Shown piece by piece: positions 4,970-46,928 of a stretch of 47,078 nucleotides of DNA. This DNA is from Clostridia bacterium. Lineage in GTDB: Bacteria; Bacillota; Clostridia; Oscillospirales; CAG-272. A model generated the notes under the pieces. The model was not told the origin of the DNA. It was given only the letters and a program-made list of their open reading frames with translations, and did not search any database. A program made the translations under genes and the position numbers. How positions within the stretch are numbered: the first letter of the stretch is position 1; each line of letters begins with the position of its first letter. The DNA is taken from the NCBI GenBank assembly GCA_017445085.1, contig JAFSUT010000107.1:1-47078 (forward strand), given 5' to 3'.

Positions 4970-6157
4970 ATGAATCAAAAAAGAAAAGAATGCGTTGCAA
5001 TGCTGCTTGCAGGGGGACAAGGCTCCCGCCTGTATGCGTTGACCAAATCCACCGCAAAGCCCGCCGTTACGTTCGGCGGCAAATACCGCATCATTGATTT
5101 TCCTCTTTCCAACTGCATAAATTCGGGCATCGACACGGTCGGCGTGCTGACGCAGTATCAGCCGCTGATGCCCAACGAATACGTGGGCAACGGTCTGCCG
5201 TGGGACCTTGACCGCACCTACGGCGGCGTCAAGATCCTCCCGCCGTACCAGGGCAACAAAAAAGCCGACTGGTACAAGGGCACCGCAAACGCCATCTATC
5301 AAAATATGGCGTTTATCGAGCAATACGACCCCGAGTACGTCCTGATCCTCTCGGGCGACCATATCTACCGTATGGACTACGAGGCGATGCTGCGCTTTCA
5401 CAAAAAGAAAAACGCCGACTGCACCATCGCCGTTTTGGAAGTCCCGATGGAAGAAGCAAGCCGCTTTGGTATCCTGACCACCGAGGCGGACGGCAAGATC
5501 TACAAGTTTACCGAAAAGCCGAAAACCCCCGACTCCAACAAGGCGTCGATGGGCATTTATATCTTCAATAAGCGCAAACTCTTTGAATATCTCAATAGCG
5601 ACGAGGCTGATGAAACCTCCGACAACGACTTTGGCAAAAACATCATCCCCGCTATGCTGGAAAGCGGCGAGCGGATGTTTGCCTATCCCTTTGAAGGCTA
5701 CTGGAAAGACGTGGGGACCATCGGGAGCCTCTGGGAAGCCAATATGGATCTGCTCGGCGCAAAACCCGCATTCTCTTTGAACGACGAGTCGCGCGGGCGC
5801 ATCTATTCGCGCTCCTCGGTCAGCGCACCGCAATACGTCGGGGACGGCGCCGTGATCTCCAACTCGATCATCACCGAGGGCTGCGAGATCTACGGCACGG
5901 TCGTAAACTCCGTCCTCTCTCACGGCGTCACCGTGGAAGCCGGCGCCGTCGTGCGCGACAGCGTCATTATGGCAAACACCACCATCGCCGCGGGCGCCGT
6001 CGTCACCTATTCGATCCTCGATGAAAACATCACGGTCGGACAAGGCGCGCATATCGGTGCGGAAAAAGCCGACGGCGTCGGCATCGCCGTCATCGGAAAC
6101 GGACACAACATCGAGCCGGGGCAAACGATCGCCGCCGGCGAAATGATCTCGGATTAA
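4970..6157 (+). CDS. glgC: glucose-1-phosphate adenylyltransferase, catalytic subunit
   Basis: N-terminal [36 protein letters not shown] plus a C-terminal left-handed beta-helix region; GGAGGA RBS. Confidence 0.92.
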
Positions 6158-6170
6158 GGGGGAATACGAT

Positions 6171-7298
6171 ATGAACGCGCTCGGACTTATTTTTTCCAAC
6201 ATTCACGACACCGCCGTCCCTGAACTTACGCGCCGCCGCGCCATCGGCTCCATTCCCTTCGGCGGCCGTTACCGCCTGATCGACTTTGCCCTCTCCAATA
6301 TGGTCAACTCGGATATCAACAAGGTCGGCGTCATCACCAACTACAACTATCAATCCTTGATGGATCACATCGGCACCGGCAAAGACTGGGATCTTGCCCG
6401 CCGCAGCGGCGGTCTGAAACTCCTGCCGCCTTACGTCACCGCGCCGGACGCCGCCGACCGTGCGTTTTCCTCCCGGCTTGAACTGCTCAAGGGCGCAATT
6501 GACTTTCTCACCCGCTCGGATGAGGAATACGTCATTATGACCGACTGCGACCGGGTCTGCACGCTGGACTATCAAAAGGTGCTGGATCGCCACATCACCT
6601 CCCGCGCCGATATGACGATCGTTACAAAGCGCGAAAAGGTCAACGCCGACGGCATCGGCAAAGAGATCCTCATTGACGCCGATATGCTCGGACGCATCAA
6701 CGACATTTCGGAGCACACCGGCGCAGACGAGGGATACCACAACGTCTCGATGAATATTTTTGTGATGAAACGCGCGTTTCTTCTCACGATGATCCGCAGC
6801 GCCATCGCCCACGGCTACCGCAGCTTTTACCACGACATCGTCGGCAAAAACCTCATGCACGCGGAATACTATATTTACAACTTTGAAGGGTACAGCGCCA
6901 CCGTTGACTCTCTGCCCGCGTATTTTGCTTGCAATATGGACATCCTGCGCCCCGAAGTGCGGCGGCAGTTGTTTGACGTTCCCTACCACGCGGTCTACAC
7001 CAAGGTGCGTTCCTCTGCGCCGACCAAGTATCTTGACGGCGCGGTCGTGAAGAACTCGCTCATCGCCGACGGTTGTATCATTGAGGGCACCGTGGAAAAC
7101 TCGATCCTCTTCCGCGACGTGCATATCGCCGCCGGCTGCGTTGTCAAAAACTCAATCTTGATGCAGGACACCATCCTCGGGCGCGACGTTTCGCTAAGTT
7201 GCGTCATCACCGATAAAAACGCCGTTATCCGGGACAGCAGAGTGCTTGTCGGGCACGAAACGCTTCCCTTCTATATTGACAAAGGAGCGATCGTATGA
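6171..7298 (+). CDS. glgD: glucose-1-phosphate adenylyltransferase, GlgD regulatory subunit
   Basis: GlgC paralogue (IPFGGRYRLIDFALSNMVNS) without the GGxGxR loop. It sits directly after glgC, as in Firmicutes, and overlaps glgA through ATGA. Confidence 0.85.
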   Translation: MNALGLIFSNIHDTAVPELTRRRAIGSIPFGGRYRLIDFALSNMVNSDINKVGVITNYNYQSLMDHIGTGKDWDLARRSGGLKLLPPYVTAPDAADRAFSSRLELLKGAIDFLTRSDEEYVIMTDCDRVCTLDYQKVLDRHITSRADMTIVTKREKVNADGIGKEILIDADMLGRINDISEHTGADEGYHNVSMNIFVMKRAFLLTMIRSAIAHGYRSFYHDIVGKNLMHAEYYIYNFEGYSATVDSLPAYFACNMDILRPEVRRQLFDVPYHAVYTKVRSSAPTKYLDGAVVKNSLIADGCIIEGTVENSILFRDVHIAAGCVVKNSILMQDTILGRDVSLSCVITDKNAVIRDSRVLVGHETLPFYIDKGAIV

Positions 7299-8737
7299 GA
7301 AAGATCTTATTTGTCGGCGCGGAGGCGCTTCCCTTTGCCGCCACCGGCGGCCTCGGCGACGTCCTCGGTTCTCTCCCCGCCGAAATTCAAAAGGCGGGCG
7401 GAAAAGACGTGGACGTCCGCGTTATTTTGCCGCTCTACCGCACGGTCAGCGACGTTTACCGCGCACAAATGGAAACCGTCTACACGGGGGAGATCTCCCT
7501 CGCCTGGCGCCGTTTGTACGTCGGCGTCCGCCGCCTGCACTACAAAGGCATCATTTACTATTTCATTGACAACGAGCAGTATTTCGGCAGAGAGGGCGGG
7601 CTGTACGGTCACTTTGACGATGCGGAACGCTACGCCTTTTTCTGTGAGGCGGTCCTCGCCGTGCTGCCAAACATCGGCTTTGTACCAAACATCCTGCACG
7701 CGCACGACTGGCAGGCTGCCATGAGCGTTGTCTACCTCAAACTCAAATACAGAAACGACCCGCGCTACACCGATATGCGCAGTATCTTTACCATCCATAA
7801 TATCGAATATCAGGGGCAGTACGACCCGTACATCCTCGGCGACGTCTTCGGACTCGGCAACGAGCATCTCGGCACGATGCTGTACGACGGCTGCATCAAC
7901 CTGATGAAAGCCGCCGTGGAATGCTGCGATTTCGTTTCCACCGTCAGCCCCACCTATGCCGGCGAGATCCAAAACCCCTATTTCTCGCACGGGCTGGACG
8001 CCGAACTGCGCAAAGAGAGCGCAAAACTCTACGGCATCCTCAACGGCATCGACTACGACCTGTATAACCCGGAGACCGATACGCTGCTCTGTGCAAATTA
8101 CAGCGCCAAAGCGCCGGCGAAGAAAGTGGAAAACAAACTTGCCGTCCAGCGTGAAATGGCGCTTGCCGAGCGCCGCGACGTCCCGATGGTCTGTCTGATC
8201 TCCCGCCTTGTCGCACACAAGGGGCTTGACCTCTTTTGCGAGATCGCGGAAGCTCTCCTGCAAAACGATATTCAGCTCATCGTCCTCGGTCTCGGCGACG
8301 AAAAATACGAAAACTTTTTACGCGATCTTGAATACCGCCACCACGACAAAGTGCGCAGTTTGATCCTCTACAATCGCGATATGTCAAAAAAACTGTACGC
8401 CGCCTGCGACATCTTCCTGATGCCGTCCAAAAGCGAGCCGTGCGGTCTTTCCCAGATGATCGCCTCCCGTTACGGCGCCATCCCCGTCGTGCGCGAGACC
8501 GGCGGTCTTTTCGACTCGATCAAGGGCTATTATGAGGCGGACGGCGTGCTGCACGGCAACGGCTTTACCTTTGCCAATTACGCCTCCGGCGAACTCCTCG
8601 AGCGCACCGAAGCCGCCATCGCTCTTTGGCGGGATCCGAAACGCCGCCGCGCCTTTGTCCAAAAGATCATGAGAACCGACTTTTCCTGGGGCGCATCCGC
8701 GCAAAAATATCTCGAAATGTACAACAGATTATTCTGA
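7295..8737 (+). CDS. glgA: glycogen synthase (ADP-glucose type)
   Basis: N-terminal MRKILFVGAEALPFAATGGLGDVLGSLP and a GT5 C-terminal motif (PSKSEPCGLSQM). Confidence 0.92.
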   Translation: MRKILFVGAEALPFAATGGLGDVLGSLPAEIQKAGGKDVDVRVILPLYRTVSDVYRAQMETVYTGEISLAWRRLYVGVRRLHYKGIIYYFIDNEQYFGREGGLYGHFDDAERYAFFCEAVLAVLPNIGFVPNILHAHDWQAAMSVVYLKLKYRNDPRYTDMRSIFTIHNIEYQGQYDPYILGDVFGLGNEHLGTMLYDGCINLMKAAVECCDFVSTVSPTYAGEIQNPYFSHGLDAELRKESAKLYGILNGIDYDLYNPETDTLLCANYSAKAPAKKVENKLAVQREMALAERRDVPMVCLISRLVAHKGLDLFCEIAEALLQNDIQLIVLGLGDEKYENFLRDLEYRHHDKVRSLILYNRDMSKKLYAACDIFLMPSKSEPCGLSQMIASRYGAIPVVRETGGLFDSIKGYYEADGVLHGNGFTFANYASGELLERTEAAIALWRDPKRRRAFVQKIMRTDFSWGASAQKYLEMYNRLF

Positions 8738-25601: not shown

Positions 25602-25675
25602 TGGGGATTTGTGTAATGGTAGCACTGCAGACTCTGACTCTGCCTGTGGGGGTTCGAACCCCTCATCCCCAGCCA
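25602..25675 (+). tRNA. tRNA-Gln (anticodon CUG), CCA encoded
   Basis: Hand-folded cloverleaf. Acceptor TGGGGAT/ATCCCCA with U1-A72; D arm GTGT-AATGGTA-GCAC; anticodon arm GCAGA-CTCTGAC-TCTGC; T arm GGGGG-TTCGAAC-CCCTC; then G-CCA. Confidence 0.9.
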
Positions 25676-38893: not shown

Positions 38894-39901
38894 CTAAGTG
38901 TCAAGTTGATAAAACAATTCATATCCGGCAAGCGTATCCATGCCGAAATATGCCAGGATCATATCGTAAGAAGTTTCTTTGATTTTTGCAAGCGTTTCTC
39001 TGCCGGCATAGCGCAGATCCACCATATCCACGTCAAAATCCCGGCAAAGATGCGGCACGAGCGCACAGCCGAAACTGTCGCAAAACATCAGCATCCGCCG
39101 TGCGTTGCCGTTTTCGATCCGCGTATATCCGCAAAGATAGCCGGGGAAAACGCCGTAAGCGTCGGCGTCACCTTTTTTGTCGAGATGATAGATTCGCTCG
39201 TCGCCGGCAAAGCGAAAGATCGCCAGCCGGTCGCCGCCGGGGAGAAGCATCTTGCGCGCCTCGCTCCCGACGAAATCGGCGTCCAGCACCTCGACGTGCG
39301 CATCACGCCTTGCGGTATAGCCGAGCGGCGCCTGCAACTGCCGGTACACCTCAAAGCTGCCAAGCGAGGTCAAATGATGGTCGCCGCGGTAGTAAACATA
39401 CTTGCCGCCGTCCGCCGCCGCACGCAAGATGGGACGCACGTCGACAAGCCCGACGCCGCCGCCTTTTGCCGCCGCCCAAAGCGACGGGCGCGCACAGGTG
39501 AAAAAGCGCGGCAGGTTTTTCGTTTGCACTTCGGCTTTGTTCGGCACGAGCACAGTTTGCAGCGGTATGCCGCGCTGTGCCGCATACGCCGACAGAAAAC
39601 CGAGATTGTTTGACAGCGTCCCTACGTCGGTCTGCGGGATAGAAAACAAATAGCCGTCCTTACCGCAGATCGCACCGCCAAACTCGTTTTGCGAGAGAAA
39701 GAGCGCCTTATCGCGCGAAAGCGTGAGCAGGGCGCGGCGCCCGGGCAAACGGTCAAAAAGAAAATCGTCGATCGCCGCATACGAAAACGCCGTATACGGT
39801 CGGTTTTCGTCGGCAAGCAGCGCGGGGGTCGGGCAAATGAAAATAAAGGCGACCGTCACGGCGCACAAAAGCAGGGTGAGGCAAAGCAATCTTTTTTCCA
39901 T
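38894..39901 (-). CDS. DHHW family protein (partner of the MBOAT acyltransferase)
   Basis: N-terminal signal anchor, YYRGDHHLTSLG (DHHW-type motif, here DHHL) and GAGGTGAG RBS. It starts 9 nt after the MBOAT gene. Confidence 0.7.
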   Translation of the reverse strand: MEKRLLCLTLLLCAVTVAFIFICPTPALLADENRPYTAFSYAAIDDFLFDRLPGRRALLTLSRDKALFLSQNEFGGAICGKDGYLFSIPQTDVGTLSNNLGFLSAYAAQRGIPLQTVLVPNKAEVQTKNLPRFFTCARPSLWAAAKGGGVGLVDVRPILRAAADGGKYVYYRGDHHLTSLGSFEVYRQLQAPLGYTARRDAHVEVLDADFVGSEARKMLLPGGDRLAIFRFAGDERIYHLDKKGDADAYGVFPGYLCGYTRIENGNARRMLMFCDSFGCALVPHLCRDFDVDMVDLRYAGRETLAKIKETSYDMILAYFGMDTLAGYELFYQLDT

Positions 39902-39909
39902 TTCTCACC

Positions 39910-41175
39910 TCAAAATGCGGCGTAGAGGAAAGGTTTGTGCCCGCCCGCCAAAAGATCGCAAAGCCCCACGCAAAACAAGCAGACCGCCACGCCGTAACGC
40001 ACAAGCAGCGGCGTTTTCCAAAGGCGCACGGTAAGTTCTGAAAGTCCCCCGCGGCTGATGAAAAACGAAAGCAGAAATAGCGGCAAAAGGCGAAAAAAAT
40101 GATACAGATCGCTTGGCAAAAACAGGGGGCGCGCACCGAGACAAAAGAGATACGAGAAAAAAGAAGCGGCGGACTGCGGCGTTGGACACAGAAAAAAGAC
40201 AAAGCCGAGCCAAACGCAAAGCAGAGTGCCGACGTTGCCGATCCCGCGACCGCCAAAGACAAGTTTTTCGGCGGCGGAGAGCAGAAAGAACCACGCGCCC
40301 CATAAAAGATAGCAAACAGACGTCCCGTGCCAAAGCGACGAGCAGAGCCAGACCGCAAACAGAGAAAGCAGCGTCCTTGTCCGCCCGCATCGACTGCCGC
40401 CGAGCGGCAGATAAACGTAGGTATAGAGGAGTTTCCCAAAACTTATGTGCCAGCGGCGAAAAAAATCGCTGACCGAACGCGCCGCATACGGATGATCAAA
40501 GTTTTGCGGCAGGTTGATCCCAAACATCTCGGCAAGTCCGCGCGCCATATCGGTGTACCCGGAAAAATCAAAGTAAAGTCCGAGGCAAAAGGCGCTGAGC
40601 GTTGTCCACGCGCCGAGCGCGCTTGCGGGCGGCGACGTGCGTGCGACCGCCGCGTACAAAACGTCGGCAAAGGCACATTTTTTGAAAAAACCGACGGCAT
40701 ACAGCACAAGCCCGTCAAACCGGCGGCGGGTGTCGCACGCCGGAGAAAACGAAAAGGCGGGGAGAAGTGCGACCGGTCCCATCCAAAGCGAGGGAAATGC
40801 CATAAGATAGATCGCGCCGTCTGTCGGGGACAGCCGTTTTCTCTCCCCGTAAAACGCATACGCCGCGGCACGCAAAAACAAAAAGGACAGTCCGCCGCAG
40901 GAAAACGAACACAAGCGGCACATGACCAGCGCACAAAACGCAGGCAACACCGCAAGATAACGCGTGTGCGAGAGCGCCAGCGTGAGCGCCGTGACAAGGA
41001 GCAGGATCAGTGCGGACGCGCCGCCGAACGCCAAAAACGAAAACAAAACGCTTACAAAGAGAAAAGCCGCGGCGCGGCGGCGCACGGGTACCGCCGTATA
41101 CAAAAGCGCCGCAAAAGGCAAAAACAGGAGAAAGAATGACGGAGAGACGAGTGTCACGACGATCCTCACTTTCAT
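39910..41175 (-). CDS. MBOAT family O-acyltransferase (AlgI/DltB-like)
   Basis: Polytopic membrane protein with FFRRWHISFGKLLYTYVYLPLGG and SSLWHG (conserved MBOAT His). Confidence 0.8.
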   Translation of the reverse strand: MKVRIVVTLVSPSFFLLFLPFAALLYTAVPVRRRAAAFLFVSVLFSFLAFGGASALILLLVTALTLALSHTRYLAVLPAFCALVMCRLCSFSCGGLSFLFLRAAAYAFYGERKRLSPTDGAIYLMAFPSLWMGPVALLPAFSFSPACDTRRRFDGLVLYAVGFFKKCAFADVLYAAVARTSPPASALGAWTTLSAFCLGLYFDFSGYTDMARGLAEMFGINLPQNFDHPYAARSVSDFFRRWHISFGKLLYTYVYLPLGGSRCGRTRTLLSLFAVWLCSSLWHGTSVCYLLWGAWFFLLSAAEKLVFGGRGIGNVGTLLCVWLGFVFFLCPTPQSAASFFSYLFCLGARPLFLPSDLYHFFRLLPLFLLSFFISRGGLSELTVRLWKTPLLVRYGVAVCLFCVGLCDLLAGGHKPFLYAAF

Positions 41176-41629: not shown

Positions 41630-42151
41630 TTATTCGGCAGCCGTTTCTTCGGCAGGTGCGGTTTCTGCAGCCGCCGTTTCGGCAGGTGCGGGCGTACCCG
41701 AGGTGACCGTTGCGGTCTGCGTTGCCGCGTCCCATTCCACCGTCATCCCAAACAGCTCGGAGATGGCGCGGACGGGCACAAGCGTGCGGTCGTTGTAAAT
41801 TTCTGGCGCAACGTCCATCTTGGTCTGCGTCGGAAGCCCGCCGCTGACATAATCGATCGTCGTTGCCGTCATCGAGCCGATGACCATCACCACGCTCTTT
41901 GTACCGAGCGTTGCAAGAATGGTACGCGTTTTGCCCTCCCAGCTCAGCGTAGCGCCGAGCGACTCAAGCACCGCGCGCAGCGGAAGCAGCATACGGTCAT
42001 GGACGATCCGCGGCGGAACGTCGCACACAAGGAGTTTGCCGTTGACCACCACCTGCGGTCCGGCAGGCGCGGCATCCTCTGCAAAGATCCCAAACGGGAG
42101 CGCCGTACAAAACATAAGCAAAGCGAGGAAAAACGCAAGATTTTTCATCAT
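41630..42151 (-). CDS. secreted copper-amine-oxidase N-terminal-like (stalk) domain protein
   Basis: Signal peptide MMKNLAFFLALLMFCTALPFGIFA. Two halves share LLPLRAVLESLGATLSWE and LVPVRAISELFGMTVEWD. Ala/Glu/Thr/Pro-rich tail; GGAGGA RBS. Confidence 0.7.
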   Translation of the reverse strand: MMKNLAFFLALLMFCTALPFGIFAEDAAPAGPQVVVNGKLLVCDVPPRIVHDRMLLPLRAVLESLGATLSWEGKTRTILATLGTKSVVMVIGSMTATTIDYVSGGLPTQTKMDVAPEIYNDRTLVPVRAISELFGMTVEWDAATQTATVTSGTPAPAETAAAETAPAEETAAE

Positions 42152-42238
42152 CTTGTCCTCCAAGCGCAATAGTTTCTGCCTACAGAATAGCACACCGCGC
42201 ACAAAATGTCAATTCTTTTCACCGCATTTGGCAAAAAG

Positions 42239-42299: not shown

Positions 42300-43106
42300 A
42301 TGAAAAACTATAAGATCATCGACGCGCATTGTCATATCTATCCGCAAAAAATCGCGCTGAAAGCGGTGCATGCCACCGACCTTTTTTATGAAATGCCGCA
42401 CGCCTCCCCCTACGACGGCACGACCGACACCCTGCTTGCCGTGCAGAAAGAAAGCGGGATCGCCCGTTTTATCGTCCAGTCGGTCGCAACGACCCCGCAT
42501 CAGGTACACAGCATCAACACCTTTGTCGCCGCCGAAGTTGCCGCACACCCCGACACCTTTACGGGGCTCGGCACCCTGCATCCCGACAGCGAACATATCG
42601 AAGAGGACGTGGAAGAGATCATCTCCCTCGGTCTGCACGGGGTAAAACTCCATCCCGATATCCAAAAATTTGCCGTGGATGACAAAAAATGTCTGCCGAT
42701 CTACGAGTGCTGCCGCGGACGACTGCCGATTTTGATGCACACCGGCGACAAGCGATACGACTTTTCCAACCCGAACCGCCTTTTGCGCGTTCTGCACGCC
42801 TTTCCGGATCTCACGATCGTCGGCGCGCACCTCGGCGGCTGGTCGATTTGGGAAGAAGCCTCCATGACGCTGACCGATATTGACAATCTCTACGTGGACA
42901 CCTCGTCCACCATCGGATTCATCGGCTTTGAAAAGGCGCGCGAGTGCATCCGCCGCTTTCCACCCGAAAAACTGCTGTTTGGCACCGACTACCCCATGTG
43001 GCGCCCGCAGGATGAAGTGACGGCGCTCCTTGACATGGACTTTACCGACGACGAATACGAAAAAATCTTCCATGCGAATGCAGAAAAGGTGTTTAGCATT
43101 CGTTAA
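42300..43106 (+). CDS. amidohydrolase-2/TIM-barrel metal-dependent hydrolase family protein
   Basis: N-terminal IIDAHCHIYPQ (HxH metal motif), with later ILMHTG, GAHLGG and FGTDYP. Confidence 0.7.
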   Translation: MKNYKIIDAHCHIYPQKIALKAVHATDLFYEMPHASPYDGTTDTLLAVQKESGIARFIVQSVATTPHQVHSINTFVAAEVAAHPDTFTGLGTLHPDSEHIEEDVEEIISLGLHGVKLHPDIQKFAVDDKKCLPIYECCRGRLPILMHTGDKRYDFSNPNRLLRVLHAFPDLTIVGAHLGGWSIWEEASMTLTDIDNLYVDTSSTIGFIGFEKARECIRRFPPEKLLFGTDYPMWRPQDEVTALLDMDFTDDEYEKIFHANAEKVFSIR

Positions 43107-43111
43107 TCCAT

Positions 43112-43150
43112 CAAAAAAGGCGGCTTACTTTGCCGCCTTTTTATATTTTT
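43112..43150. terminator. bidirectional terminator closing both the amidohydrolase gene and the rSAM operon
   Basis: An 8-bp stem (AAGGCGGC at 43117..43124 with GCCGCCTT at 43132..43139) is flanked by A6 and T-rich runs. The 3' arm overlaps the last codons of the rSAM gene. Confidence 0.75.
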
Positions 43151-44483
43151 CGTAGGCTTTCAGCATCTGCCGTTCGATCCGGTTTTGCCTTAAAAACTTA
43201 TCCGCTTTTCCGCAAACCAACGGCTCGTCCGGACAGAGTTTGAGGCGATTACAGATCGGATAAAACGAACAGCCGCCGCACATTTCCGGCGTCTTTCCGG
43301 ACGCCGCAAATTCCAAAAACTGCGCGCGGTCGGTAATCCCGTTTTCCACATCGCCGATAAAATGATCCTCCGAATAGTGCTCGCATTTCCCGAGTTTGCC
43401 ATTTGGCAGGATAATCACCGCGTGCGGCGAATCCGCCATACATTTGGTAATCTTGTGCGCATCTTCGAGCATGTGAACGCCGAGCAGACGGTTCGCTTGC
43501 AATTTTTCCTCGAGCGCCGTCATATTTTTCGCCTGCAAAAGCTGTGCGTCATCATCGCCGGTGAATTTTTTGCGATCGGTATCAAAAAGCAGGTGCGTAT
43601 AGATGAAAAAACCTTTTTTGCCGCCGAAGCGCGCAACGAGTTCGTCAATGAGGAGCGAAAGATTTTGAAGATTCTGCGCGCTGACATTGAGGCGGATGGA
43701 AACCGAAATCCCCGCATCCAAAAGCCCGTCGATGTTCTCCATCACAATCCGATACGGGTTGCCTTCTTTATAAATATAGGCCTTGGAACGGTTATAAACT
43801 TCCTCGGTACCGTCCAGCGAAATCTGTACGCGGCGCAAATGCCAGCGTTCTTTGGCGTTGATCAAATTTTCGCCGCGCATCAGATAACCGTTTGTGACCA
43901 TGGTAGAGGCAAAGGTCACCCGCTCTTCGGACAGCCGGCGGGTAATATAATTTATGACCTCGGCATTGTAGAGCGGCTCGCCGCCGAACCATGCGAGAGA
44001 AATGCCGTTTTTCTTCTCTTTTTTGGTGCGCAAAATAAAGCGCACGACTTTTTCCGCGGTTTCCTGCGTCATCGATATGCGCGGGCGCCCCATCTCATAG
44101 CAATAATAGCAGCGTGCGTTGCAATCCATGGTGGTAAATATCCGATAGGCGGAAAAATATTCATCTCTGTTGACAAACAGACGCAAAAAGGCATAAAACT
44201 CATCCGCCAGCTTTGTCTCATCCTGCGCCTGTTCCACAAAATAATGCTTTTCTGCAAAGGGGCGGATCGCCGCATCGCCCGCGGCATGGGTTTCGGTCAG
44301 CAATGCCGCTTCTGCGGGAGAGAGCAACAAGAGTTCCTTTGTCAGCGCATGAAAACAAAGCACCCCGTCCGCGCACTTTGCAAAATGCAAAAAGGAACTC
44401 GGGCGAAGCAGCGTATCATCGGCAAAGGTCGGAGCGCCGATAAACTGCTTTGCGTTTTTTTCCATCGGTTGAATGATGACCAT
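43125..44483 (-). CDS. radical SAM/SPASM peptide maturase paralogue 2 (452 aa)
   Basis: CNARCYYC (C121/C125/C128, 44100..44123). SPASM pattern C-x13-G-x4-C (CMADSPHAVIILPNGKLGKC) plus CGGCSFYPICNRLKLC. A 120-aa N-terminal domain is present. ATG overlaps the upstream stop as TAATG. Confidence 0.85.
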   Translation of the reverse strand: MVIIQPMEKNAKQFIGAPTFADDTLLRPSSFLHFAKCADGVLCFHALTKELLLLSPAEAALLTETHAAGDAAIRPFAEKHYFVEQAQDETKLADEFYAFLRLFVNRDEYFSAYRIFTTMDCNARCYYCYEMGRPRISMTQETAEKVVRFILRTKKEKKNGISLAWFGGEPLYNAEVINYITRRLSEERVTFASTMVTNGYLMRGENLINAKERWHLRRVQISLDGTEEVYNRSKAYIYKEGNPYRIVMENIDGLLDAGISVSIRLNVSAQNLQNLSLLIDELVARFGGKKGFFIYTHLLFDTDRKKFTGDDDAQLLQAKNMTALEEKLQANRLLGVHMLEDAHKITKCMADSPHAVIILPNGKLGKCEHYSEDHFIGDVENGITDRAQFLEFAASGKTPEMCGGCSFYPICNRLKLCPDEPLVCGKADKFLRQNRIERQMLKAYEKYKKAAK

Positions 44484-45871
44484 TATTTTTCTTCCCCGTT
44501 TTCGCTTTGGGCCGCGCGCAGATAGCGCCGATAGACAAATCGGACAGCGTTTTCCAATTTGTGCAATCTTTCCGCTTTGTAAGATGCGTCGCATTCTGCC
44601 GGACCGTCGTCACGGCAATTTTTCAGCCGGATACAATCGGTGTAGATCGCACAGCCGCGGCAGTTCGCCGGTGAATTTGCGCGTTCCCGCCACATCGTTA
44701 CCGCCTCTTGCGAAAGGACGCCGTGTACCACATCCCCGCAAAGGCACCCTTCAGCGGCATGGTCGCACTTGGAAAGCTGCCCTTCCGGAAAAATCTGTAT
44801 CGCCGACGGATTGTCGGCAAGGCAGCGGCGCAGTTTGATATTGTTGCCGAGCGGATTTTCCCGTGCTATACCGAGTCGGCGGCAGTAGTTGTCAAACTCT
44901 ATAATGGCGTTGACAATCTCCGTGCGTCCATCCGCCGTGCGCACCGTGTTGATATTTTCACGATCCTCGTAGAGTCCCACGGCGTAAACGCCCAGATTTT
45001 CCGGCGAGCCGAAGCGTGCATAGAGTTCATCCGCCAGCGATTTTAACATGTCCATATTATGGCGGTCGATATTGACGCGCAGATACAAAGTGACGCCGGT
45101 CTCCAAAAGCAGACCGATATTCCGCATCACACGTTGATACGGGCTCGGATCATCCTTATATATATACGCTTTGCAGGTATTATAAATCTCTTCCGTACCG
45201 TCGAGAGAGATTTGTACGCGCATAAGATGCCACGCCTCCATCCCCTCCCGCACAATATCAGCGTCGAAAAGATAGCCGTTGGTATAAATTTCCGAAATAA
45301 AGTCCTGCCCCGCCGCCGTAAGGCGCCTGACAATCGTGCGGATTGCCTCGATATTGTAAAGCGGTTCGCCGCCGTGCCAGCGCAGCATAACGCGCTTGCC
45401 GTGTGCGTGTGCAAGAATATAATCGGCAACGGCATTTGCCGTTTTTTCGCTCATCGGCACGTGCCGCGCGATTCTGTCCGTTTCGTAGCAATAAAAGCAG
45501 CGCGCGTTGCAGTCATGCGTCACAAGAATCTGATAATCCAAAATCACGTCCGGCGTAGATTTTGCCGCCGCGACCAAAGCGCGCACGCGCTCTACCGTTT
45601 CATAAGCGTCAAACTCCGGCGCGACCAAATACCATTTCTCCGCAAACGTCCGCGCGAGCGCACCGCAAAAGCGGTTTCCCTGAAGAAAAGCCAATTCCTC
45701 CACGCTCAGGAGCAAAATCTCGCGCGTTAAAAGATTGGCGGCAAGGACATTTCCGTCCTCCGCCGTCACAAAAATGCAAAACGGACTCACGCGGTATTCC
45801 TTTTCCGCATCATATATCTGCACACCGAGCAACCGCGCCGCATAACCGGAAGCGCCTTTAATGATTTGCAT
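44483..45871 (-). CDS. radical SAM/SPASM peptide maturase paralogue 1 (462 aa)
   Basis: CNARCFYC (C121/C125/C128, 45488..45511). SPASM pattern CLADNPSAIQIFPEGQLSKC plus CRGCAIYTDCIRLKNC. GGAGGAG RBS. The start overlaps the upstream gene by 14 nt. Confidence 0.85.
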   Translation of the reverse strand: MQIIKGASGYAARLLGVQIYDAEKEYRVSPFCIFVTAEDGNVLAANLLTREILLLSVEELAFLQGNRFCGALARTFAEKWYLVAPEFDAYETVERVRALVAAAKSTPDVILDYQILVTHDCNARCFYCYETDRIARHVPMSEKTANAVADYILAHAHGKRVMLRWHGGEPLYNIEAIRTIVRRLTAAGQDFISEIYTNGYLFDADIVREGMEAWHLMRVQISLDGTEEIYNTCKAYIYKDDPSPYQRVMRNIGLLLETGVTLYLRVNIDRHNMDMLKSLADELYARFGSPENLGVYAVGLYEDRENINTVRTADGRTEIVNAIIEFDNYCRRLGIARENPLGNNIKLRRCLADNPSAIQIFPEGQLSKCDHAAEGCLCGDVVHGVLSQEAVTMWRERANSPANCRGCAIYTDCIRLKNCRDDGPAECDASYKAERLHKLENAVRFVYRRYLRAAQSENGEEK

Positions 45872-46610
45872 TTTTCTCCTCCGCTTTGATGCCCGCATAC
45901 GCTGTTTCTGCGGCGGACACATCCATATTGCACTGCATACAATAGACCGGAACGGCCGCAAGCATACGATCCAGATATTCGAGCTGCTTTTGCAGGTCAG
46001 CCGAATTTTCCACTTCGATCTGCCCAAGCAAAAACGGAACGGCCTCCTCCACGGGAATCTTTTTGAAATGATTTTCCGCGCCGCGCCGGAGCAGTAAAAT
46101 ACCGGCGAGCTTTACGCTTGACGCCGTATGATAGTGTTCTTTGCCGCACCAAGGCGTGCCGTAACCGTAAATACCGTCCTCCGTGAGGCGAAAAATCGGC
46201 TTGTCGCCGTTGATGACGTGCACATTCTCTTTGCCGAACGCTTTTTGCCAAAGCAGCATATGCGTCGTTTTCCCGGTGCCGCTTTTGGCGGTAAACAAAT
46301 ATCCTTTGCCCTCATATTCAATCAAAACGCCGTGCATCACAAAAGCGCCGTATTGCAAAATCATATTGTTGATTTTGCGATGCAGAGCGTTGAGCTCGAC
46401 CAAGGCTATGTTTTTGTGCGCCGTGCGATCGCGCGTGTGGTCGGGATCAAAAAACTCAAATTCCCTGTCGATATCCCCTTGCGTGACCGTGATCGTAAAA
46501 TCCGCCCGCTCCGCCGTGCTTTTGAAGGCCTTGAAATCAGACAGATGGTTAAGAAGGAACGGATGCACAAGTTGAATATCTATATGAAAACCGCCGATAG
46601 AATAAAGCAT
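45858..46610 (-). CDS. HPr-kinase/phosphorylase-C-terminal-like P-loop protein (250 aa)
   Basis: HGVLIEYEGKGYLFTAKSGTGKTTHMLLW parallels the HprK/P core (HGVLv..G.GvLitG.SG.GKSE.AL). Walker A lies at 46266..46289. GGAG RBS. Confidence 0.6.
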   Translation of the reverse strand: MLYSIGGFHIDIQLVHPFLLNHLSDFKAFKSTAERADFTITVTQGDIDREFEFFDPDHTRDRTAHKNIALVELNALHRKINNMILQYGAFVMHGVLIEYEGKGYLFTAKSGTGKTTHMLLWQKAFGKENVHVINGDKPIFRLTEDGIYGYGTPWCGKEHYHTASSVKLAGILLLRRGAENHFKKIPVEEAVPFLLGQIEVENSADLQKQLEYLDRMLAAVPVYCMQCNMDVSAAETAYAGIKAEEKNANH

Positions 46611-46686
46611 ATGTACTCCGTGAAAATAAAAATGATTCGTACTTATCTATAGTTTCTCACCGTTTCCGTGAGAGATTTTACTTGTT

Positions 46687-46713
46687 GAAAAAGGCGGGAT
46701 AAACCCGCCTTTC
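46687..46713 (-). terminator. intrinsic terminator/attenuator between the precursor peptide gene and the maturase genes
   Basis: The minus strand reads AGGCGGG-TTTAT-CCCGCCT followed by TTTTC, starting 17 nt after the peptide stop codon. Confidence 0.7.
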
Positions 46714-46729
46714 TCTGTTTTCAGCCAAC

Positions 46730-46855
46730 TTAGATCATGTACTCGCAGCCTGCGAACGGATCGTCGTCACCGCAATCTTCCTCACAGCTACTGGTCATGA
46801 TGAGAGCCGTCATCTCAAGGGATACGAGCTCAGCTTCAGGTGCTACATATTTCAT
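46730..46855 (-). CDS. 41-aa candidate RiPP precursor peptide MKYVAPEAELVSLEMTALIMTSSCEEDCGDDDPFAGCEYMI
   Basis: Hand-translated and absent from the ORF track because it is shorter than 60 aa. ATG 46855 lies 8 nt after GGAGGA (46869..46864); TAA stop at 46732..46730. It has its own consensus promoter and sits directly upstream of the rSAM/SPASM genes. Confidence 0.75.
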   Translation of the reverse strand: MKYVAPEAELVSLEMTALIMTSSCEEDCGDDDPFAGCEYMI

Positions 46856-46899
46856 GTGAATAATCCTCCGAAATTCAATATCCCATATTACGTGTCTAT

Positions 46900-46928
46900 A
46901 GTATAGCAATCTTTTTGTCTAATGTCAA
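46900..46928 (-). promoter_or_regulatory. near-consensus sigma-A promoter of the peptide operon
   Basis: The minus strand reads TTGACA (46928..46923), 17 nt ending in TGc, TATACT (46905..46900). Confidence 0.7.

Follow-up and report, generated by a model that had tools for sequence, protein, structure and literature searches.

The ranthipeptide and SCIFF maturases, exemplified by CteB and PapB, combine an N-terminal domain with a radical S-adenosylmethionine (rSAM) domain and a seven-Cys SPASM domain, and PapB forms thioethers in Cys-Xn-Asp/Glu motifs with n = 0-6 (PMC9413430). Homologues of the HPr kinase (HPrK) phosphorylate lasso-peptide precursors, as stated in PMC7533575 (citing Zhu et al. 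2016) and PMC4289311. The SynChlorMet cassette (TIGR04249-04251) joins an HPrK-like protein, ScmC, to two rSAM/SPASM paralogues, ScmE and ScmF; it is uncharacterised, and the searchable literature holds no account of it. In ComQXP of Bacillus and agrBDC of Staphylococcus, the N-terminus of the precursor is conserved while the mature part is hypervariable and co-varies with the modifying enzyme. Here we describe a four-gene operon that resembles each of these systems in part. It lies on the minus strand of a 47,078-nucleotide (nt) stretch of DNA from a Clostridia bacterium (Oscillospirales, CAG-272; positions 1 to 47,078 of contig JAFSUT010000107.1, assembly GCA_017445085.1), which is called the window below; positions given without a locus name refer to it, and L numbers denote the loci with which it was compared. 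The operon encodes a 41-residue putative precursor peptide, a 250-residue ScmC-like protein and two rSAM/SPASM enzymes, rSAM1 and rSAM2. On balance it is probably a leader-dependent operon of the type that makes ribosomally synthesised peptides modified after translation (RiPPs), in which rSAM cross-links, likely Cys-to-Asp/Glu thioethers, are combined with an ATP-dependent modification by the ScmC-like enzyme to give a strain-specific product.

The logic is that of ranthipeptide or sactipeptide pathways, but judged by profile scores the operon belongs to none of the named families. A first-pass annotation of the sequence had been unable to match the combination to a characterised class, and within the reach of NCBIfam 20.0, Pfam and the searchable literature it is indeed undescribed: no system of peptide, HPrK-fold protein and rSAM enzyme was found in that literature, the only related mentions being of lasso clusters.

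The precursor open reading frame (ORF; 46855..46730, minus strand; MKYVAPEAELVSLEMTALIMTSSCEEDCGDDDPFAGCEYMI) falls into two parts. Its leader, residues 1-22 (MKYVAPEAELVSLEMTALIMTS; 46855..46790, minus strand), is kept across 14 loci and 89 protein clusters, whereas its core (SCEEDCGDDDPFAGCEYMI, followed by the stop codon; 46789..46730, minus strand) is hypervariable in the family. As the first-pass annotation had counted, the 19 residues past position 22, which end in CEYMI, include three Cys and seven acidic residues; two of the Cys stand in C-x-x-D motifs, and potential acidic acceptors lie close by (C-E-E-D, C-G-D-D and C-E-Y). Scans of Pfam and NCBIfam assigned the window peptide to no family. 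A profile search gathered the 89 clusters, none of which carries a functional name or a Pfam domain; the peptide family is unnamed and uncharacterised, and it is widespread in gut Clostridia. Its leader reads MKYxAPxAELVSLExxSVILxS; M1, K2, Y3, P6 and A8 are invariant in it, and S22 nearly so. The C-terminal portion, with 0-3 Cys, is acidic and hypervariable; at least one Cys (1-3) is present in 80 of the 85 unique cores, and family-wide the positions +2 to +4 from a Cys towards the C-terminus are enriched in Asp (z = 4-6, uncorrected for the relatedness of the sequences and so indicative only).

The surroundings of the peptide gene are equally regular. A strong hairpin follows it directly on the 3' side in all 16 family genes examined, and the ScmC-like gene adjoins it at 17 of 17 distinct loci, including all three that were fetched from the peptide side. 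As is expected next to rSAM/SPASM maturases of RiPPs, an adjacent precursor gene is present whose leader is conserved and whose core varies. The small ORF, which had been proposed to be a precursor, is by these signs of sequence conservation a genuine, conserved precursor-type gene.

Some loci depart from the simple pattern of one precursor per cassette. Three precursor genes occur at L013 (3392-3790 and 6856-6996): an upstream pair, identical save for one leader residue (T4/V4) and with two Cys each, and a divergent, Cys-less third (MKYIRPEAEVILFQ...LPNFFE) downstream of the ScmC-like gene. L083 has a second, more divergent leader-type peptide (MKNYVKPHLDTVELSLCDVLLTS...; 51-209) upstream of a 1284-residue dockerin protein, about 4.2 kb upstream of its main precursor gene. 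At the rSAM-bearing loci L090, L091 and L138, and likewise at L005 and L007, no leader-type peptide was recognised.

Both maturase-like genes are on the minus strand and collinear: rSAM1 (462 residues; 45871..44483), in a clade with the enzymes of L171, L085 and L174a, and rSAM2 (452 residues; 44483..43125), in a clade with those of L083 and most single-rSAM loci. The start codon of rSAM1 lies 14 nt within the ScmC-like gene, and rSAM1 and rSAM2 meet at a TAATG junction in which one A is common to stop and start, so that the 14-nt overlap and the junction read as the first-pass annotation had it. PF04055, the model it had suggested as a check, matches both proteins at 51 bits against a cut-off of 29.5. 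The CX3CX2C motif (C121, C125 and C128 in rSAM2 numbering) is invariant in 30 aligned sequences including rSAM1, as are the SPASM Cys C348, C367, C402, C405, C411, C417 and C424; the Pfam SPASM model gives no match to the window enzymes at E < 0.01. The AlphaFold2 model of rSAM2 (mean confidence, pLDDT, 88.6) has as its top fold match the thioether synthase CteB (5WHY/5WGG; E ~2e-15, ~450 aligned columns including the N-terminal domain), followed by TigE, SuiB and SkfB. The anaerobic sulfatase maturase (anSME) comes lower, with a shorter alignment and without the N-terminal domain; the matches to both CteB and anSME run through the C-terminus, that is, the SPASM region. CteB (5WGG) is also the top sequence match in the PDB for rSAM1 and rSAM2. 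The proposal of two paralogues of the peptide-maturase type is borne out by this fold and by the invariant motifs.

Among named families, the top NCBIfam matches are TIGR04463, CefB, FlmE/OhkG, PapB, Clo7bot and the geopeptide maturase, all of them maturases of Cys-rich peptides or ranthipeptides, with 77-122 bits against cut-offs of 340-600. PapB itself (NF047865), with a cut-off of 340, scores 104.4 bits for rSAM2 and 77.5 for rSAM1; the model of the SCIFF maturase (TIGR03974), whose cut-off is 425, gives 54.2 and 52.2 bits. The likeness to the ranthipeptide systems lies in the shared three-domain architecture and in a Cys-rich, acidic core whose C-x-x-D motifs resemble the Cys-Xn-Asp/Glu targets of PapB, while the different leader, the two paralogous maturases and the obligate HPrK-like partner set the window operon apart. 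The two paralogues share 37% identity and belong to two old clades with single-copy orthologues of each elsewhere, on which grounds a recent tandem duplication is rejected. The wider family to which they belong exceeds 2,853 proteins (E <= 1e-30); five members that were scanned reach no NCBIfam cut-off. In Prevotella and other Bacteroidales, members with about 40% identity (L166, 2032-3845; L168, 1545-3351) come with PqqD, either separate or fused, and with small peptides starting MKKxYxxPxxE, but with no ScmC-like gene. From these peptides, the leader type seems to be older than its link to ScmC.

The ScmC-like protein is encoded between the peptide and the maturases (46610..45858, minus strand). 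Its AlphaFold2 model (pLDDT 92) is matched by Foldseek to the HPrK/P catalytic domain (E = 3e-7) and to ATP-dependent phosphoenolpyruvate carboxykinase (PEPCK), and the segment MHGAVIEYEGKGYLFTAKSGTGKT aligns with the 25-residue HPrK core. H93, the SGTGKTTH P-loop, NGDKP and YGTPWCGKE, with K114 and D136 included, are invariant in 26 diverse relatives. The fold of the protein is thus of the HPrK C-domain/PEPCK type and includes the His-(x)n-GxSGxGKS/T core, and its earlier description as an HprK-like P-loop protein holds. By profile comparison the named family closest to it is the ScmC of SynChlorMet: Pfam PF27840 'ScmC' is weakly matched, and TIGR04249 scores 20.8 bits against a cut-off of 125. 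The same model is weakly matched by 25 of the 26 relatives, the best E-value being 2.7e-9 and still under the cut-off, and 11-13 of the 26 also have sub-threshold matches to one of the models HprK, HprK-related A and HprK-related B. The model of the bona fide HPr(Ser) kinase (TIGR00679) gives 14.1 bits against 240.

A loose likeness to SynChlorMet, to which the first-pass annotation had pointed, is justified in so far as an HPrK-like protein stands beside two rSAM/SPASM paralogues with ScmC as nearest family, but every score falls under its cut-off. rSAM1 reaches 43.6 bits with ScmE (TIGR04250; cut-off 400), rSAM2 has no ScmE or ScmF match among its best 25 families, the window operon holds no other genes of the cassette, and the taxa differ, the window being from gut Clostridia. 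The HPr-kinase homologues of lasso clusters (PadeK/ThcoK type) offer another parallel, namely an HPrK-fold enzyme dedicated to a ribosomal peptide, and lasso precursor phosphorylation is a precedent for the proposed ATP-dependent modification of the peptide by the ScmC-like enzyme. Unlike these clusters, the window operon has no lasso cyclase or B2 protease, its peptide ends in Ile rather than Ser, and its partners are rSAM enzymes.

Relatives of the ScmC-like protein number in the hundreds. At least 588 species-level genomes have one, as do over 580 metagenome contigs, and gut or rumen Clostridia are the source of nearly all. Most of this wider family (L014-L082, for example L021 5157-8106, L065 4042-6693 and L041 5645-9754) resides in a different cassette, which consists of a 219-residue membrane protein, the ScmC-like protein, a lasso-type PqqD and an S26-like peptidase that is sometimes fused to the ScmC-like protein; NTP_transf_5 and an ABC exporter are optional extras, and neither a lasso cyclase nor an obvious precursor was seen. 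The lasso-type PqqD, NTP_transf_5 and ABC exporter are neighbours shared with the lasso clusters of Firmicutes. Linkage to the small peptide is, by contrast, a trait of the clade to which the window protein is closest.

Comparison of the peptide-bearing loci suggests what is constant in the system. Two rSAM genes are found in the window and at L174/L175, in the same order (ScmC, clade 1, clade 2); one at L008, L009, L010, L012, L013, L083, L085, L088, L170 and L171; and none at L003, L011 and L172 (at L004 and L006 contig ends leave the number unsettled). Judged from gene content, the peptide and the ScmC-like enzyme make up the conserved centre of the system, and the rSAM enzymes are variable accessories present in 0, 1 or 2 copies. 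The two-maturase combination that had been singled out is real but not unique, since the same pair in the same order recurs at L174. The co-occurrence of rSAM paralogues with a small peptide and the kinase-like gene, which had been suggested as a check, is seen at those peptide-bearing loci that have rSAM genes, whereas L090, L091 and L138 lack a recognised peptide. Every rSAM-bearing locus has at least one core Cys, and the clearest rSAM-less locus, L003, has none. The leader is fully conserved at the rSAM-less loci all the same, L003 among them, which would call for another leader reader, probably the ScmC-like enzyme as the only constant partner.

Comparison with a near-identical strain shows how the operon varies. 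The flanks of L171 match the window at 99% (ECF component), 96.5% (Cu_amine_oxidN1 protein), 96% (MBOAT) and 94% (amidohydrolase), while within the cassette the ScmC-like proteins share 40%, the single rSAM of L171 shares 40% with rSAM1, and the peptides are identical in the leader only. In blastn, 88% identity over promoter, ribosome-binding site (RBS) and leader ends at about leader codon 22, and similarity is back at 94% from the terminator past rSAM2 onward; between these breakpoints there are only short patches of 73-83% identity. Window positions 43143..46790 (minus strand) are, on this alignment, a hypervariable block of core codons, ScmC-like gene and rSAM genes in which core and enzymes have been exchanged together. 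The counterpart in L171 is 6066-8303. The ScmC-like protein of the window is closer to that of L083 (56%), whose flanks are more distant (66-85%), so block and flanks have different histories. Since the core changes between strains together with the ScmC-like enzyme and the rSAMs, as a single cassette, the product would be strain-specific.

A second pattern concerns the end of the peptide. At some loci a gene for an SLH-domain surface protein stands between the peptide and the ScmC-like gene, and over its final 7-10 residues the peptide matches the tail of the SLH protein. The tails are GNNMGGSDDL in both proteins at L003 (1805-2773), NNSMGDEEL in the peptide and NNSMGDVEL in the SLH protein at L012 (531-1549), PNQGSGSGWD and PNTGSPSGWD at L085 (4984-6004), and EDMLEEF and EDELEEF at L174 (367-1363). 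The two tails of L003 are separated by four synonymous codon changes and no replacement change, and the match is locus-specific (permutation p ~0.001). At L006 (247-1274), too, the peptide tail matches that of the neighbouring SLH protein. A C-terminal tail like the core was not found above noise in the 47 kb of the window or in the syntenic loci L171 and L083; the best score overall (27) came from an unsupported antisense ORF. At the SLH-type loci L003, L004, L011, L012, L013 and L172, giant surface-type proteins of up to more than 2000 residues with a conserved C-terminal region are encoded directly upstream of the peptide gene.

In the mechanism that we favour, each rSAM enzyme, with its N-terminal CteB-like domain, CX3CX2C motif and seven-Cys SPASM domain, would bind the leader and form intramolecular thioethers from Cys to nearby Asp or Glu in the manner of ranthipeptide maturases and PapB, or to other acceptor carbons, and each paralogue probably serves different Cys sites. 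Thioethers to Asp/Glu are the most likely product on account of the CteB/PapB-type relatives and the C-x-x-D motifs. The ScmC-like enzyme, which keeps the HPrK His, the P-loop Lys and the Asp, would use ATP to phosphorylate or otherwise activate the peptide, the candidate sites being Ser22/Ser23, which are near-invariant and stand where leader and core meet, or else a residue of the core. The operon itself has no genes for leader removal or export, and the strain-specific product would fit a pheromone-like signal or a narrow-spectrum antagonist.

Several observations weigh against this mechanism. All named-family scores of the rSAM enzymes in NCBIfam are far under the cut-offs, and the thioether is but one of several reactions known in the fold class, which includes the cyclopropylglycine of TigE and the Lys-Trp link of SuiB. 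The N-terminal recognition-type domains that had been claimed find support in structure and none in sequence: the N-domain of the rSAM2 model consists of beta-strands and helices, and the model aligns over ~450 columns to CteB, which has a RiPP recognition element (RRE), whereas hhalign of the rSAM N-domain with the PqqD proteins of related loci gives a probability of 0.2%; the recognition domain is accordingly a putative one. The association of rSAM genes with core Cys is an imperfect rule, as L011 and L172 are rSAM-less yet have one core Cys. The window peptide lacks the C-terminal Ser that is the site of the known lasso kinases, and the ScmC-like protein may be a scaffold, or an ATPase without kinase activity. 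Finally, none of the four genes of the operon encodes a protease, exporter, immunity protein or receptor; that it is devoid of protease and exporter had already been noted in the first-pass annotation.

The alternative that survives best concerns the function of the product rather than its making: it may be a strain-specific signalling peptide, a pherotype, and not an antimicrobial, with core and enzymes co-evolving and the receptor encoded elsewhere. Like ComQXP and agr, the window shows a conserved leader with core and enzymes that co-vary between near-identical strains, the variable block running from the leader-core junction to the end of the enzymes between flanks of 94-99% identity. The absence of immunity and export genes from the operon and the copying of a cell-surface SLH tail by the peptides of sister loci point the same way. 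On the other hand, no receptor or histidine kinase gene lies in or beside the cassette at any locus, the window block included, bacteriocin loci are likewise hypervariable between strains, and the chemistry is entirely different from that of ComQXP and agr; signalling is proposed here by analogy. We regard this alternative as possible but doubtful.

It is unlikely, though worth weighing, that the ScmC-like protein is not a peptide kinase at all and instead serves as a scaffold or ATPase that binds the leader and hands the peptide to the rSAM enzymes, or acts on another substrate such as the SLH tail. Its scores are below the cut-off of every HprK model, its neighbours in the wider family are a PqqD chaperone, an S26-like peptidase and NTP_transf_5 rather than rSAMs, and SLH tails match the peptide tails in sister loci. 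Against this reading stands the fact that it stays with the peptide where rSAMs are absent (L003, L011 and L172), and the invariance of the catalytic His, the P-loop Lys/Thr and the NGDKP Asp in the 26 diverse members argues for catalysis.

More speculatively, and in our judgement improbably, the leader peptide and the HPrK-fold enzyme would form the core of the system with the rSAMs as add-ons, and the mature product would be a surface protein's C-terminal tail copied as a free peptide, in some cases Cys-cyclised: a strain-specific mimic of a surface ligand, used in signalling or envelope competition and exchanged as a block in pherotype-like fashion. It is highly improbable that the rSAM enzymes are something other than peptide maturases, such as cofactor enzymes or proteins like the sulfatase maturases, with the small ORF there by chance: weak matches to the anSME, MoaA, NirJ and AhbC models occur as in any SPASM protein, and anSME is among the fold matches, but it ranks below CteB, TigE, SuiB and SkfB and lacks the N-terminal domain, its NCBIfam model gives 52-55 bits against a cut-off of 349, the nearest sulfatase gene seen lies ~3 kb upstream of the peptide gene, at L085 only, and the small ORF, with an RBS and a hairpin to itself, shows conservation and varies in step with the enzymes.

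The expression signals of the operon are well defined and agree with the first-pass annotation throughout. A sigma-70-type promoter (46928..46900, minus strand; TTGACA-17-TATACT with an extended -10 TG) has 11 of 12 matches and is the top promoter-like site of the region; the RBS GGAGGA of the peptide gene (46869..46864, minus strand) lies 8 nt upstream of the ATG at 46855, and both are kept in L171. Behind the peptide gene, a GC-rich hairpin followed by a U-run (46712..46690, minus strand) forms an attenuator that resembles an intrinsic terminator (-21.6 kcal/mol, z = -4.3; 0 of 200 shuffles fold as well). From these signals, the single strong promoter would yield an abundant short transcript for the 41-residue precursor that ends at the hairpin, and read-through would supply the three translationally coupled enzymes. 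The operon closes with a bidirectional terminator hairpin with A- and T-runs at its sides (43142..43114, both strands; -17.7 kcal/mol, z = -4.8), common to a convergent amidohydrolase gene (42300..43106, plus strand). The locus is present in two ENA metagenome assemblies with the identical four gene calls. Plus-strand ORFs within the operon genes (43362..44525 and others) are unsupported and were set aside as antisense artefacts, and there is little to suggest a foreign GC island, the operon having about 52% GC and other parts of the window 51-60%.

Downstream of the operon, a gene for a Cu_amine_oxidN1-domain protein (41630-42202) and an O-acyltransferase-like module, a gene pair of MBOAT and ALGX/DHHW type (38894-41175), are present; all three genes are kept in the syntenic strains. 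The sole Rfam/ARAGORN match in the 47 kb is a tRNA-Gln (CTG) at 25602-25675.

Taken together, the analysis delimits, in uncultured Clostridia of gut and rumen, an unnamed precursor family of 89 clusters with an HPrK-fold partner that is obligate, and links both to a very large, uncharacterised rSAM/SPASM family that is also present in Prevotella and other Bacteroidales. With both rSAM clades in a compact set of four genes, the window operon is a test case that lends itself well to heterologous reconstitution. The mimicry of SLH tails is a concrete, testable clue to the target of the product, and surface-ligand mimicry, if true, would be a peptide logic undescribed for any RiPP class. The exchange of core and enzymes as a block between near-identical strains suggests that, in the gut ecosystem, a peptide product is under strong diversifying selection.

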